A DNA stretch of 64,000 bases, from positions 1-64,000 of the forward strand of contig JAZSIR010000002.1 of assembly GCA_045533905.1 (NCBI GenBank). The letters run 5' to 3'. Below, piece by piece: positions 36-53,340 of the stretch. The DNA comes from Clostridia bacterium. Lineage in GTDB: Bacteria > Bacillota > Clostridia > UMGS1883 > UMGS1540. The translations under genes and the position numbers were made by a program. Numbering within the stretch: the stretch's first letter is position 1; each line of letters begins with the position of its first letter. The notes under the pieces were generated by a model that saw nothing but the letters and a program-made list of their open reading frames with translations, made no database searches and was not told the origin of the DNA.

Positions 36-111
36 TGGAGCTGGTGATGGGACTCGAACCCGCAACCTGCTGATTACAAATCAGCTGCTCTGCCAATTGA
101 GCTACACCAGC
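36..111 (-). tRNA. tRNA-Thr(TGT)
   Basis: 76-nt cloverleaf GCTGGTGTAGCTCAATTGGCAGAGCA-GCTGA TTTGTAA TCAGC-...GGTTCGAGTCC...CACCAGCTCCA with encoded CCA. Confidence 0.96.
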
Positions 112-24151: not shown

Positions 24152-24227
24152 GCGAATGTAGCTCATCTGGTAGAGCGCCACCTTGCCAAGGTGGAGGTAG
24201 CGAGTTCGAGCCTCGTCATTCGCTCCA
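24152..24227 (+). tRNA. tRNA-Gly(GCC)
   Basis: 76-nt cloverleaf GCGAATG..CCACC TTGCCAA GGTGG..GTTCGAG..CATTCGCTCCA. Confidence 0.96.
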
Positions 24228-33816: not shown

Positions 33817-34151
33817 GTGAGTAGGTCGGGCAATCGCGGCAGGGCGCACGCCCTGGTGAGGAAAGTCCGAGCACCAAAGGGCAAGGGTGCCAGATAACGT
33901 CTGGTGGAGGCGACTCTAAGGATAGTGTAACAGAAAACAACCGCCGATTTTTCGGTAAGGATGGAAAGGCGAGGTAAGAGCTCACCGGCGGTATGGAGAC
34001 ATACCGGCCGTATAAACCCCACCCGGTGCAACACCGACAGAAGAGATAAGCCGGCCCGGCACTTCTTCGACCGGTGGCTAAAGCCGTATAGCAATATGCG
34101 GCGTAGATAGATGATTGTCTGAGACAGAACTCGGCTTACAGACTTACTCAC
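33817..34151 (+). ncRNA. rnpB: RNase P RNA (type A)
   Basis: GAGGAAAGTCCGAGC, ACAGAAAACAACCGCC, GGTAAGAGCTCACC, AAACCCCACCCGGTGCAA, ACAGAACTCGGCTTA; ends GTGAGTAGGTC/GACTTACTCAC pair; promoter TTGACA-N17-TATCCT at 33782-33810. Confidence 0.97.
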
Positions 34152-34166
34152 CGTTTTGACCCTTTT

Positions 34167-49289: not shown

Positions 49290-49318
49290 AAAGGCTCTCC
49301 AAAAGGAGAGCCTTTTTT
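49290..49318. terminator. bidirectional terminator
   Basis: AAAGGCTCTCC-aaaa-GGAGAGCCTTTTTT between convergent genes. Confidence 0.8.
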
Positions 49319-49322
49319 GTTT

Positions 49323-50513
49323 CTACTCTGTATCTCTGCCGGGCACGATAACTTTATCGAGGATATTCGTAAGCTTTGCGATGACCATACCGTAGTTTGT
49401 AATCGGCACGCCCTGTCCCTCGGCCGCCGCAATTCTCGACAGCACGTGGCGGCGGTTAAACATACAGGCGCCGCAATGGATAATGAGGCTATAGGGCGAA
49501 AGGTCTTTCGGAAAATCGTTTCCGCCGACTACATCCACCGACAGCCCTTCCCCCACCTTTTTGCGAAGGAGAACTGGAATTTTCACGCGGCCGATATCTT
49601 CCGAGGCCGGCGCGTGTGTGCAGGCCTCCGCAATCAGAATTCGGTCGTTTTCCGTAAGCCTTTCGATGGCCCCGGCCCCTTCAAGGAAGGTTTTCGCATC
49701 CCCCTTGGCATCGGCAAGTAGGACAGAAAAGGAAGTAAGCGGAATACCTTGCGGCACCTTTTCGTACACCGTCTTAAAAGCCTGCGAATCGGTAATAATA
49801 AGATCCGGCGGCGAAGACAAGCGCCCAAGTGCCGCCTCCATCGTTTCGGGCGTTGTGCAAATCGGAATACAGCCGCGGTCAAGAAGCTCGCGTATCGTCT
49901 GTACCTGCGGCAAAATGAGCCTTCCGCGCGGTGCAGAGGCATCCTGCGGCATTACAAGGAGCACAACATCGCCGGGCTTTGTCACCCGCCCTGTTATGCT
50001 TCTTTCCTCAGCCGCGAACGGCGAGAGGGCAGCGCGAATGTTGGAGAATCCCTCGCCTTTTTTTGCACTTACGCGAAGGAGTGCATTTTCACACACCGCT
50101 TCCGCTTTTTCTGCGGCGGCAGAATCCTCCCCGAGGTCTGTTTTATTCATAACGGGCAAAACGGGGATTTTTTTGGCCTTGCACAAATTGGCCCATTCTT
50201 TCTCCATCTCGCCGAACTCGCCTGCAAAGAGCAGGATGGCCACATCCGTTTTTTCGAGCGCTTCGCGCGTTTTCGAAACGCGAAGTTCCCCAAGCTCGCC
50301 CGTATCGTCATACCCTGCGGTATCGATGAGCACGCACGGCCCTACACCGCGGATTTCCATATTCTTATATACAGGGTCTGCCGTGGTACCGAGTGTATCG
50401 GACACAATAGCTACCTCTTGCCCCGTGAGAGCATTGATAAAGGAGGATTTACCGGCGTTTCGGCGCCCGAAAATCCCGATATGAAGACGCGCTGCGCGCG
50501 GTGCTGTTTCCAT
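49323..50513 (-). CDS. hydF: [FeFe]-hydrogenase maturation GTPase HydF
   Basis: GRRNAGKSS, TT.DPV.K.ME, GRLILPQVQ, ITDSQ, EACTH, HCGACM, TNYG. Confidence 0.97.
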   Translation of the reverse strand: METAPRAARLHIGIFGRRNAGKSSFINALTGQEVAIVSDTLGTTADPVYKNMEIRGVGPCVLIDTAGYDDTGELGELRVSKTREALEKTDVAILLFAGEFGEMEKEWANLCKAKKIPVLPVMNKTDLGEDSAAAEKAEAVCENALLRVSAKKGEGFSNIRAALSPFAAEERSITGRVTKPGDVVLLVMPQDASAPRGRLILPQVQTIRELLDRGCIPICTTPETMEAALGRLSSPPDLIITDSQAFKTVYEKVPQGIPLTSFSVLLADAKGDAKTFLEGAGAIERLTENDRILIAEACTHAPASEDIGRVKIPVLLRKKVGEGLSVDVVGGNDFPKDLSPYSLIIHCGACMFNRRHVLSRIAAAEGQGVPITNYGMVIAKLTNILDKVIVPGRDTE

Positions 50514-50525
50514 AAAAGCCCCTCC

Positions 50526-51938
50526 TTAAAAACGGAAGTCGCGGCTGCCCTCGTGCATACGGGCAATATTTTCCTCCGCAATTTTTCTTACTTTTTCATT
50601 CGGAATCCGCAGGAGTTCATTCGTAATCAGCCCTTCCCCGATTTTCCGTGTTTCGGGCGAGGCGTAATCCTCCAGATATTCCTGCAGCGTCATCAGCGCA
50701 TTCGGCTGGCAGCAGTTGGCAATCTGTCCGGATTTTACGAGCTGCATAAACCGGTCGCCCGTGCGGTTTTCGCGGTAGCAGGCGGTGCAGAAGCTGGGAA
50801 TATAGCCGAGCTTCATCAGCCAGTTTACAACCTCATCAAGCGTACGTCTGTCATCGATCTCAAACTGGATGGACTCGTTATCTTCCTCCGCATAGCCGCC
50901 TACGCTTGTGCGCGAGCCGCCGGAAAGCTGCGAAACGCCGATTTTGAGAAGGCGTTCGCGCATTGAAGCCGATTCTCTTGTCGATACAATCATACCGGTA
51001 TACGGCACCGCGAGGCGGATGACTGCCACAATTTTTTCAAATACATCGTCAGCAACGGCATTGGAAAATTCATCGGCATTAACGCCGTCTGCCGGGCGGA
51101 TACGCGGCACACTGATGGTGTGCGGGCCCACGCCCTTCGCAGCCTCAAGATGCTCCGCGTGCATAAGAAGACCTACAAAGTCATAGCGATAGAGATTGAG
51201 ACCGAACAAAACGCCGATACCAACATCATCAATACCGCCATCCATAGCACGGTCCATCGCCTCTGTATGGTAGGCATAATTGCTTTTCGGACCCGTGGGA
51301 TGGAGCATTTTGTAGTTTTCCTTATGGTATGTTTCCTGGAACAGGATGTACGTGCCTATTTTTGCCTCGTGCAGGGCACGATATGCCTCCACCGTGGTTG
51401 CGGCAATGTTCACATTTACGCGGCGTATAGCGCCGTTTTTGTGCTTTATGCTGTAAATGGTGTCAATACTCTCGAGGATATAGGAAAGCGGCGAATGCAC
51501 GGGGTCCTCGCCCGATTCGAGCGCAAGGCGCTTATGCCCCATATCCTGAAGGGCAATTACCTCTTTGCGGATTTCTTCCTGCGAAAGCTTTTTACGCGGA
51601 ATGGTGCAGTTGCCGTGGTGATACGGGCAATATACACAGCCGTTTACGCAGTAATTCGAAAGGTACAAGGGTGCAAACATAACGATGCGGTTGCCGTAAA
51701 GGCGCATTTTCAGTTCGTTTGCCACCTTGAAAATCCGCGCATTTCTGTCGGGAATCGTGCACTCCAAAAGCACGGCCGCCTCTCTGTGGTCAAGCCCGCC
51801 GCCTTTTTCCGCCTTATCAATAAGCTTATCAATAAGCGTCGCATCTTCTTTGTGCGCATCGGCGTAAAGAAGCGTTTCTTCAATCTCTGCATGGTTTATA
51901 AATTCTTCCGCTTTGGATGATTTAACATCGTATTTCAT
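50526..51938 (-). CDS. hydG: [FeFe]-hydrogenase maturase HydG (radical SAM)
   Basis: FAPLYLSNYCVNGCVYC, GPHTISVPR, C-terminal PSFCTACYR..C.PNA. Confidence 0.96.
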   Translation of the reverse strand: MKYDVKSSKAEEFINHAEIEETLLYADAHKEDATLIDKLIDKAEKGGGLDHREAAVLLECTIPDRNARIFKVANELKMRLYGNRIVMFAPLYLSNYCVNGCVYCPYHHGNCTIPRKKLSQEEIRKEVIALQDMGHKRLALESGEDPVHSPLSYILESIDTIYSIKHKNGAIRRVNVNIAATTVEAYRALHEAKIGTYILFQETYHKENYKMLHPTGPKSNYAYHTEAMDRAMDGGIDDVGIGVLFGLNLYRYDFVGLLMHAEHLEAAKGVGPHTISVPRIRPADGVNADEFSNAVADDVFEKIVAVIRLAVPYTGMIVSTRESASMRERLLKIGVSQLSGGSRTSVGGYAEEDNESIQFEIDDRRTLDEVVNWLMKLGYIPSFCTACYRENRTGDRFMQLVKSGQIANCCQPNALMTLQEYLEDYASPETRKIGEGLITNELLRIPNEKVRKIAEENIARMHEGSRDFRF

Positions 51939-52954
51939 TGGTAGTCTCCTCTCACGGCTAAAATCGTATAGCCCATATTTTCTATTTTGCGGCATACCTC
52001 GGCAATCGGCTCTGCCGCTTTATTATCATAAATTGCATATTGTCCGTGCCGTGCAGGGGGCGAAAGGTTGGGCATCACAACATTGGCACCTGCCGAAATT
52101 CCCTGTTCCCTGCCTCCAGGCGAAAGCGTAGCCAGCGCCGTAGTAGCCGGCAGAAGCGCCCGTCTGTGCATCAGCCGCAAGACAGAAAGGAGCTTGACTG
52201 TAAGGGCAAGGCTTCCCGCCGCCTCTCTTCCAAACGGCGTTTCCTTTTGCGGCAAAAACGGCCCGATACCGATCATATGCGGTTTGAAGTCTTGCAAAAA
52301 CAAAAGGTCCTCCGCGATATTTTCCACCGTCTGATACGGCGAGCCGACCATAAACCCTGCGCCCACCTGATAGCCAAGTGCTTTCAGATTTTCAAGGCAT
52401 GCGATGCGCGAGGAAAGCTGCATCGAAGAAGGGTGTAGTTTTTCATAATGCGCGGGCGTTGCTGTCTCATGGCGCAGAAGGTATCTGTCCGCCCCCGCTT
52501 TGCGAAGCGTTTCGTACGAAGTCGCGCTGCGCTCCCCAAGGGAAAGGGTGACGGCTGCATCGGGGTATTTTTCCTTGAGCTTTCTGATGATACTTACAAG
52601 GCGCGCGTCTGTAAAATATCCGTCCTCACCGCCCTGCAACACAAAGGTGCGAATGCCTTCCCGGTATCCGCTCTCCGCCGAAGCGAGAATTTCCTCCTCC
52701 GTAAGGCGATAGCGCACCGCCTTTTCGTTACTTCTGCGAAGGCCGCAGTAGAAGCAGTCATTTTTACAGAAGCTGCTAATTTCAATAAGACCACGAAGGT
52801 AAATATTTTTCCCGAACACAGCATCCGTCGCCTCGCGCGCCGCAATGCGGATTTCTTCATCAAATTCGTCTCCGGAAAGCAGCGACAGCATATCTTCTTT
52901 TGTAAGCCATTTGCCTTCCACAAGACGGGCAAATGCTTTTTTTGCATCCATCAT
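51935..52954 (-). CDS. hydE: [FeFe]-hydrogenase maturase HydE (radical SAM)
   Basis: RGLIEISSFCKNDCFYCGLR, LQGGED, RYLLRHET, GANVVMPN, Y..Y..K. Confidence 0.95.
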   Translation of the reverse strand: MMDAKKAFARLVEGKWLTKEDMLSLLSGDEFDEEIRIAAREATDAVFGKNIYLRGLIEISSFCKNDCFYCGLRRSNEKAVRYRLTEEEILASAESGYREGIRTFVLQGGEDGYFTDARLVSIIRKLKEKYPDAAVTLSLGERSATSYETLRKAGADRYLLRHETATPAHYEKLHPSSMQLSSRIACLENLKALGYQVGAGFMVGSPYQTVENIAEDLLFLQDFKPHMIGIGPFLPQKETPFGREAAGSLALTVKLLSVLRLMHRRALLPATTALATLSPGGREQGISAGANVVMPNLSPPARHGQYAIYDNKAAEPIAEVCRKIENMGYTILAVRGDYQ

Positions 52955-53196
52955 ATCTTTGCGTAAACGGTTTTCGCCGTCACGCCCTCCAGCATACCAA
53001 GCTTCCCGGAAACGGACGCCGTAACGGCTTCCGGTGCATCCAGAACGACGCTGATGACCGAAATGTTCCGTTCTCTGTACGGGATGCCCATTCTTCCCAC
53101 AATATATTGCCCTGCATCGTGCAGAATCTGATTGATTTTCTCAGCAGAATCCGTGTTTTCCACAATTATGCCGATATGTGCAATTCTGTTTTCCAT
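52951..53196 (-). CDS. TM1266-family iron-only hydrogenase system putative regulator (ACT-like)
   Basis: MENRIAHIGIIVE..N.ILH....IVGRMGIPY...SGKLG.L.GV..K; first gene of the hydEGF operon. Confidence 0.9.
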   Translation of the reverse strand: MENRIAHIGIIVENTDSAEKINQILHDAGQYIVGRMGIPYRERNISVISVVLDAPEAVTASVSGKLGMLEGVTAKTVYAKI

Positions 53197-53210
53197 TGTT
53201 CCTCCTATAC

Positions 53211-53305
53211 AAAAAGGCCGTTCCCCCAAAAAGGCGGAACGGCCATACTACTGCCCTATTTGAAATTCCGCCTTCGCGGTCGGGACGAACCCTTCCTCTC
53301 AGGTT
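53211..53305 (-). promoter_or_regulatory. attenuator leader (terminator/antiterminator) of the hyd maturase operon
   Basis: Terminator GGCCGTTCC..GGAACGGCC-TTTTT and a competing AAGGCGGAA/TTCCGCCTT pairing. Confidence 0.7.
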
Positions 53306-53311
53306 TCTTTC

Positions 53312-53340
53312 AGTATAGCATATTTCGATATATCCGTCAA
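53312..53340 (-). promoter_or_regulatory. sigmaA promoter of the hyd maturase operon
   Basis: TTGACG-N17-TATACT with TG extension. Confidence 0.75.

Follow-up and report, generated by a model that had tools for sequence, protein, structure and literature searches.

A conserved hairpin RNA ahead of H-cluster maturation genes in anaerobic Bacillota and its probable control by TM1266

Introduction

What does a terminator-like hairpin do between the promoter and the first gene of an operon for [FeFe]-hydrogenase maturation? In the window analysed here (the whole 64,000-nucleotide stretch of a Clostridia bacterium contig), the genes TM1266, hydE, hydG and hydF follow a leader of about 110 nt that separates the promoter from the TM1266 start on the minus strand. 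No account of the regulation of [FeFe]-hydrogenase maturation was found in the literature searched. For Thermotoga neapolitana under CO2, a joint rise is tabulated for the TM1266 gene (5.98), hydE (7.52) and hydG (6.39), with little rise of hydF (1.28) (PMC7039931); this table shows that the operon is regulated and does not indicate the mechanism. A first-pass annotation of the window, made from the letters alone, had proposed an OFF switch in the leader, worked either by a ligand or by the TM1266 protein. Here, the leader was compared with its homologues, folded, and followed across genomes with and without the TM1266 gene.

Results

The operon and its leader

The gene names given in the first-pass annotation were correct, as all four products score above their NCBIfam cut-offs. 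The operon and its borders are as follows.

53346, minus strand: stop of the TPR gene, the last gene of the upstream rnj-mtlD-TPR set
52951..53196, minus strand: TM1266-family protein, 81 aa (TIGR03959, 109.3 bits vs. a cut-off of 60.8; PF21699, 105.7 vs. 27 bits)
51935..52951, minus strand: hydE, radical SAM H-cluster maturase (TIGR03956, 477.9 bits)
50526..51938, minus strand: hydG, radical SAM H-cluster maturase (TIGR03955, 884.2 bits)
49323..50513, minus strand: hydF, H-cluster maturation GTPase (TIGR03918, 525.6 bits)
49290..49315, both strands: bidirectional terminator-like stem between hydF and a convergent ctpA-like gene (terminator scan), likely the end of the hyd operon

The genome of the window contains four matches to the [FeFe]-hydrogenase large subunit. 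The window also carries a class A RNase P RNA (33818-34154, plus strand) and tRNA genes (39-111, minus strand; 24152-24224, plus strand), all ordinary. Within the leader, five elements were located.

53312..53340, minus strand: sigma-70-type promoter TTGACG-N17-TATACT with a TG extension (-35 box 53340-53335, extended -10 box 53317-53312)
53271..53303, minus strand: two-fold-symmetric 33-nt hairpin, the predicted anti-antiterminator and predicted TM1266 site (covariation, distribution)
53265..53275, minus strand: switch strand and predicted antiterminator, formed by the 3' side of the first stem (P1) and the next bases (11-pair complement of the terminator 5' arm and loop)
53211..53244, minus strand: intrinsic-terminator-like stem 53244-53216 with a tract of five U at 53215-53211 (folding)
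53201..53206, minus strand: Shine-Dalgarno sequence AGGAGG of TM1266, with the ATG at 53196 (sequence)

The promoter named in the first-pass annotation is present and agrees with the consensus at 10 of 12 positions, which would place the transcription start near 53305. A promoter scan returned 14 promoter-like sites in 12 kb vs. 10.4 ± 3.4 in shuffled sequence, so that the match in the window alone is weak evidence. In 43 of 57 homologous loci, a promoter-like site ended upstream of the hairpin, at a distance of 0-90 nt. A start downstream of the hairpin, with which the annotation had held a switch to be incompatible, was also looked for, and a promoter-like site between hairpin and start codon was found at 3 of the 57 loci only.

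The annotation had further placed an intrinsic terminator between the promoter and the first gene, and folding confirmed it: the stem reached -24.3 kcal/mol (z -4.6), a value equalled by none of 200 shuffles, and the U tract ends 14 nt from the ATG. This stem was absent from the output of a simple terminator scan. Moreover, promoter, hairpin and terminator were retained among relatives whose upstream gene differs. At the sequence level, the locus has the order of an attenuator, with a promoter followed by a terminator-bearing leader before the first gene.

A two-fold-symmetric hairpin is conserved by covariation

TM1266 loci were gathered from 46 of 61 related genomes together with 80 GTDB loci, and a common hairpin was recognised by eye in 22 leaders. 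From its base, the hairpin consists of P1 (3 bp), a GA/RA internal loop, P2 (4 bp), an RA/GA loop, P3 (3 bp) and a variable loop. Both strands read CU-GA-N4-RA-AG, which gives the helix a two-fold axis. It is a single 33-nt helix that lacks any conserved junction and whose loop varies freely; the copy in the window has a mismatch at one P2 position.

In the 22 leaders, 88% of the alignment cells paired, with two-sided changes in 8 of 10 pairs, and this level of pairing was matched by none of 500 shuffles and by no slid register. Pairing amounted to 91% in a set of 54 leaders and to 90% in 22 separate model matches, both sets being biased in that they were chosen with pairing rewarded. A bias-free test was therefore carried out, in which selection by sequence only in 225 loci outside the first model of the hairpin gave 86 matches, chance ones included. 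In these, the central 4 bp of P2 paired in 71% of cells, compared with 39% for shuffled partners (maximum 49%). The two N4 blocks were identical at 25% of positions, which is the chance level, and match length varied from 28 to 35 nt. A direct-repeat operator in the DNA was rejected on these figures, since the N4 blocks pair (71%) instead of repeating (25%).

The fold drawn in the first-pass annotation, a short hairpin within a multi-stem closure, did not survive this comparison as the conserved fold. Across 22 orthologous leaders, it paired in 51% of cells vs. 88% for the long hairpin; none of 500 column shuffles reached the 51%, and one slid control came near on covariation (0.262 vs. 0.306). 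It is a near-equal fold in the window sequence only, where three structures lie close together: the annotated multi-stem fold (-37.9 kcal/mol), the antiterminated fold (-38.2) and the conserved hairpin with terminator (-36.9).

A search of Rfam 15 (4227 families) gave no match to the leader at gathering score, consistent with the earlier view that it does not fit the TPP, SAM-I, T-box, cobalamin, Moco or NiCo consensus, and 8 homologous loci gave no Rfam match either. At E≤10, the window leader matched only PyrR (RF00515; 16 bits vs. 54, E 8.4) and BcKCsr2 (15 bits vs. 40), and both sub-threshold alignments were driven by the terminator. In the literature searched on RNA discovery and hydrogenases, the hairpin was undescribed; the supplement of PMC11109978, with 107 protein-binding and 33 weak riboswitch candidates, lay outside this search and could list the motif, and the text of that paper, as far as covered, does not mention it. 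Term searches found no trace of the hairpin in PMC8632094 (main text and supplementary file) or in the supplementary files of PMC6429828 (main text outside the search), and returned nothing relevant from the portions of PMC2965389, PMC1913097, PMC9431212 and PMC9481103 that were covered. We conclude with high confidence that the element is a real, conserved and uncatalogued cis-regulatory RNA.

The hairpin precedes maturation genes across anaerobic Bacillota

A descriptor search of 116 TM1266 upstream regions located the hairpin in 59 on the sense strand and in 2 on the antisense strand, and none of 232 shuffles contained it; 7 duplicates and 3 loci of insufficient length are left out of the count. 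Conservation of the leader in orthologues, on which the earlier proposal depended, was thus borne out, with covarying stems. At loci outside the motif definition the count was 38 of 71, and a looser descriptor located the hairpin at 19 of 38 TM1266 loci across the phylum and, within the Clostridium subterminale family, at 20 of 30. About half of the TM1266 genes have no hairpin within 350-400 nt. The hairpin precedes H-cluster maturation genes in many anaerobic Bacillota, and tandem copies are common. Hairpin loci were sampled within Bacillota, and a plasmid collection yielded three records, all from Bacillota.

A model search of 150 whole genomes returned 41 matches, of which 21 lay inside open reading frames and 20 between genes. 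Of the 20 intergenic matches, 17 lie before hydG or a TM1266-family gene, and every one of these is from a genome with TM1266. Scoring covered only 81-93 of the several hundred candidates in each genome, and about half of the matches fell in open reading frames; the sensitivity of this search was low, so that it was not used for claims of absence. One copy was found in the genome of the window (150 of about 400 candidates scored).

Several side observations concern the TM1266 gene itself. In many Bacillota (loci L169-L204) there is a second TM1266-like gene, divergent and scoring below the family cut-off; the hairpin was found at none of 24 such paralogues, 12 of the 36 fetched having been dropped as the gene was not located. 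At other loci (L007, L015, L246, L259 and others), TM1266 ends unrelated housekeeping operons without the hairpin, and a distant hydG retains it. At one locus (L075:1631-3246), two unrelated genes, for a P-loop protein and a GNAT acetyltransferase, separate TM1266 from the hairpin-terminator leader; they seem to have been inserted behind the attenuator.

Copies of the hairpin also mark genes beyond the maturases.

L396:305, Acetobacterium bakii: hairpin and terminator before an aspartate ammonia-lyase gene (aspA), then hydF
L395:428 and L320:1835-2818 (A. bakii), L314:5864-8588 (Vescimonas fastidiosa) and L120:1222-1263: hairpin before SsuA/NMT1-like ABC importer or lipoprotein-like genes

A. 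bakii thus has three hairpin copies, before TM1266, before aspA-hydF and before the SsuA-like ABC importer; V. fastidiosa has the hairpin before TM1266 and the SsuA/NMT1-like importer, and Monoglobus pectinilyticus before TM1266-hydG. AspA is described as a partner of HydF that gives the ammonium for the dithiolate bridge (PMC11736057).

Folding supports mutually exclusive structures

The first-pass annotation had noted a 9-nt complement to the terminator 5' arm. This complement is real and extends, with G-U pairs, to 11 pairs (-17.5 kcal/mol), and in the window the 3' end of the hairpin also serves as antiterminator strand. Of 59 homologues, 53 have a terminator-like stem (-8 kcal/mol or stronger) after the hairpin, a count made with no chance control. 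In these loci, the cognate antiterminator duplex averaged -10.7 kcal/mol vs. -8.1 for non-cognate pairs and -6.8 for shuffled ones. The duplex was better than its own shuffles in 26 of the 53; in the remaining 27 no pairing above the shuffles was seen, and in some of them the wrong tandem copy or stem had been paired.

Transcripts ending at the terminator loop, before the 3' arm, were also folded. The antiterminator was dominant in 38 of the 53 and P1 in 8. In the window, clamping P1 raised the probability of the terminator from 0.40 to 0.99. When the terminator was folded complete, read-through was favoured at equilibrium in only 7 of 53 homologues, so a default ON state would have to be kinetic. 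Mutually exclusive folds are conserved in homologues, as judged by the 26 of 53 above shuffles and the antiterminated intermediate in 38 of 53, and the alternation of anti-antiterminator, antiterminator and terminator supports the OFF-switch architecture claimed earlier, at the level of sequence and folding.

The hairpin co-occurs with the TM1266 gene

In a phylum sample of 150 genomes, TM1266 was found above cut-off in 68, HydG in 74 and both in 65. In the TM1266-bearing genomes, 11 of 16 hydG or hydE loci lying apart from the TM1266 gene had the hairpin. Where hydG was present and no TM1266 scored above cut-off, the hairpin was found at 0 of 9 loci, up to 3.5 kb upstream; three of these nine loci represent one genus, and one has a sub-cut-off TM1266 match.

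A family designated f3, in which 37 of 38 genomes have hydG, gave a larger comparison. In TM1266-bearing genomes, where TM1266 lies mostly elsewhere on the chromosome, 19 of 20 hydG loci carry the hairpin (a degenerate copy was scored absent and three TM1266-bearing genomes were left out), compared with 1 of 15 hydG loci in genomes without a TM1266 match. Absence of TM1266 in f3 rests on draft genomes that are 81-96% complete. The single exception is G029 (93% complete). The gene that stands before TM1266 in four congeners is missing there too, which suggests that the lack of TM1266 in G029 is an assembly gap. Within one genus of this family (g12), the hairpin was present at 9 of 10 hydG loci with TM1266 in the genome vs. 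0 of 8 without, and in the C. subterminale family at 5 of 7 vs. 0 of 3. The hairpin is missing from a separate hydG in two Clostridiaceae genomes that have TM1266.

Because kin are not independent, raw Fisher values overstate this co-occurrence. A hydG tree of 35 f3 loci shows 6 changes for either trait. It provides five independent contrasts, of which an average of 3.7 have the motif going with TM1266 and none have it going against (sign test, p=0.125). Co-loss of the hairpin would also arise if TM1266 made or relayed the ligand instead of binding the RNA.

Two further observations were made in this survey. One TM1266-bearing genome has a second hydG without the hairpin (L305, G019:C23), in an upstream context like that of TM1266-less genomes, a possible case of bin contamination or transfer. 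In four others (G216 and G224 with loci L391 and L394, also G225 and G259), TM1266 is present with no HydG match at E≤1e-90; L391 and L394 retain hydE and hydF with the hairpin, an arrangement that would fit uptake of the HydG product.

Terminator-free copies adjoin the ribosome site of hydG

In f3, the hairpin stands mostly at hydG and has no terminator. Examination of 18 hydG-locus matches (17 from f3 and one from the family of the window) showed that in 16 the hairpin directly adjoins the Shine-Dalgarno sequence, with no terminator. For several hydG copies, no more than about 8 nt separate the hairpin from an upstream -10 box; the whole leader then is hairpin plus Shine-Dalgarno sequence, and there is no room for an alternative fold. 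Such hairpins were also found inside operons, between hydE and hydG. A protein bound to a hairpin in this position would block the ribosome; for a ligand, with no rival fold, there would be nothing to switch.

TM1266 has a sensor-type fold

TM1266 is annotated as a 'putative regulator'. The structure model of the window protein (pLDDT 95) resembled 2NZC with a TM-score of 0.93 and the NikR metal-binding domain with 0.86. 2NZC is a four-chain structure of Thermotoga maritima TM1266, titled an uncharacterised protein, and it is the basis on which we infer an oligomeric state. TM1266 is a single domain of 81 aa without the ribbon-helix-helix DNA-binding domain of NikR. The nickel site of NikR consists of three His and one Cys; the window protein has two His and no Cys, so this site is not evidently kept.

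Among the best 120 of 444 longer TM1266 homologues, none has a DNA-binding Pfam domain and 24 are fused to an ABC ATPase. The TM1266 domain is C-terminal in the two fusions checked (P0004 and P0069), and the fusions are Synergistota-named proteins. Importer ATPases can have C-terminal regulatory domains, and by analogy the fusions suggest that TM1266 is a ligand-binding domain, perhaps for an imported substrate. In 44 close homologues, R4, R35 and K75 were invariant and K65, Y40 and Y78 nearly so. These conserved Arg, Lys and Tyr residues could contact RNA, the basic ones being weak evidence in an alignment of close homologues only.

Discussion

The leader is probably an OFF attenuator of transcription of the PyrR kind, in which TM1266 binds the hairpin and turns the H-cluster maturation genes off. 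Without the binder, folding predicts that the 3' strand of the hairpin would pair with the emerging 5' arm of the terminator, so that polymerase reads through; with P1 held closed, the terminator would form. A symmetric TM1266 oligomer may bind the two CU-GA-N4-RA-AG half-sites, one on each strand. The same binding would block the ribosome where the hairpin adjoins the Shine-Dalgarno sequence. A small ligand linked to H-cluster supply may gate the binding, and our best guess for this ligand is a maturation product or precursor that the linked ABC importer could also bring in.

Two systems of Bacillus subtilis offer models for this mechanism. In the pyr operon, the PyrR protein stabilises an anti-antiterminator hairpin and thereby frees the terminator (PMC4347634, PMC1913097). 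The likeness lies in this protein-stabilised logic and in a regulator gene that often stands behind its own site. The leader described here differs in that it scores 16 bits against the RF00515 gathering score of 54 and forms a helix of dyad symmetry that contains two GA/RA loops. The protein predicted to bind it is TM1266 (PF21699), and the genes downstream are those for TM1266 and H-cluster maturation (hydE, hydG, hydF) rather than for pyrimidine biosynthesis. TRAP is a ligand-gated RNA-binding protein that acts both by attenuation and by direct blocking of a ribosome site (PMC4347634), a dual output that we infer for the present hairpin. TRAP belongs to an unrelated protein family and binds single-stranded NAG repeats, whereas the hairpin here is a covarying double helix. 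The fold of TM1266 itself is shared with 2NZC and the C-terminal metal-binding domain of NikR, with the differences that NikR has the ribbon-helix-helix domain and that its nickel site is not evidently kept in TM1266.

The first-pass annotation had left the choice between direct sensing by the RNA and control through TM1266. A riboswitch, in which the hairpin is a small aptamer for a metabolite or ion (SAM, a tyrosine product, Fe2+) and TM1266 is merely co-regulated, would account for an expression platform with mutually exclusive folds, for the tandem copies, as in tandem riboswitches, and for the metabolic gene set under control (hydE, hydG, hydF, aspA and the ABC importer). Leaders of the NiCo/czcD, yybP-ykoY, SAM, TPP and Moco riboswitches share with the present one the 5' position, the terminator and antiterminator before cofactor genes, and the tandem copies. 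Nevertheless, the hairpin has neither the multi-stem aptamer of those classes nor an Rfam riboswitch match, being one 33-nt helix with a variable loop and no conserved junction. Its distribution is not independent of the candidate regulator, as genomes that lack a TM1266 match have it at only 1 of their 27 hydG loci, though hydG is kept there, and the copies adjoining the Shine-Dalgarno sequence have no competing fold. We therefore consider a riboswitch unlikely. Co-occurrence in trans and the minimal ribosome-site versions together favour protein-dependent control by TM1266, as far as comparative sequence data can tell, and nothing in these data speaks for SAM, tyrosine or iron being sensed by the RNA itself.

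Another protein, for example a maturase, might instead bind the hairpin, with TM1266 acting upstream as sensor or partner. Co-occurrence is blind to direct vs. indirect action. TM1266 has a ligand-sensor fold, and its fusion to ABC ATPases is a setting without an obvious RNA role. However, hydG is kept in hairpin-less genomes and so is not sufficient, and no other gene was seen to track the hairpin among those looked at, which fell short of whole genomes. This arrangement seems improbable to us.

An operator in the DNA, with a direct repeat behind the promoter for a transcription factor and a terminator of separate function, is very improbable. A direct repeat is one way to read the two half-sites, which lie close behind the -10 box, and the nearest fold, NikR, is that of a DNA-binding repressor. 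Yet the N4 blocks pair with each other (71% of cells) instead of being identical (25%), and match length ranges from 28 to 35 nt; the motif is strand-specific, covaries with the terminator arm and occurs between genes inside operons at the hydG Shine-Dalgarno sequence, and TM1266, with 81 aa, has no NikR DNA-binding domain. That the terminator merely ends the rnj-mtlD-TPR transcript and the hairpin is non-regulatory is scarcely credible: no terminator-like site is listed between the TPR stop (53346) and the promoter, so that upstream read-through would meet the stem, but promoter, hairpin and terminator are retained while the upstream gene changes, the U tract is only 14 nt from the ATG, and promoters downstream of the hairpin were confined to 3 of 57 loci.

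Control by TM1266 as set out above invites a broader and much more tentative reading. TM1266 might represent the first of a new class of RNA-binding regulators gated by a ligand. Its NikR-type sensor domain would then recognise a two-fold-symmetric RNA helix in place of DNA, respond to an H-cluster precursor or product, and govern a regulon of hydE, hydG, hydF, aspA and an SsuA/NMT1-type ABC importer by attenuation and ribosome blocking; we regard this as possible and rather doubtful. If it were true, anaerobes may import a building block of the hydrogenase cofactor from their surroundings.

A switch bound by TM1266 would, if confirmed, be a new way to control hydrogenase assembly. TM1266, a protein of solved structure and uncharacterised function, gains a concrete candidate target, and the pair to be examined is small, a 33-nt RNA and an 81-aa protein. 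Since the hairpin marks members of the regulon such as aspA and the ABC importer, it also offers a route to the sensed ligand. The finding may bear on the hydrogen metabolism of gut, rumen and industrial anaerobes, and on the tuning of maturase expression for hydrogen production.
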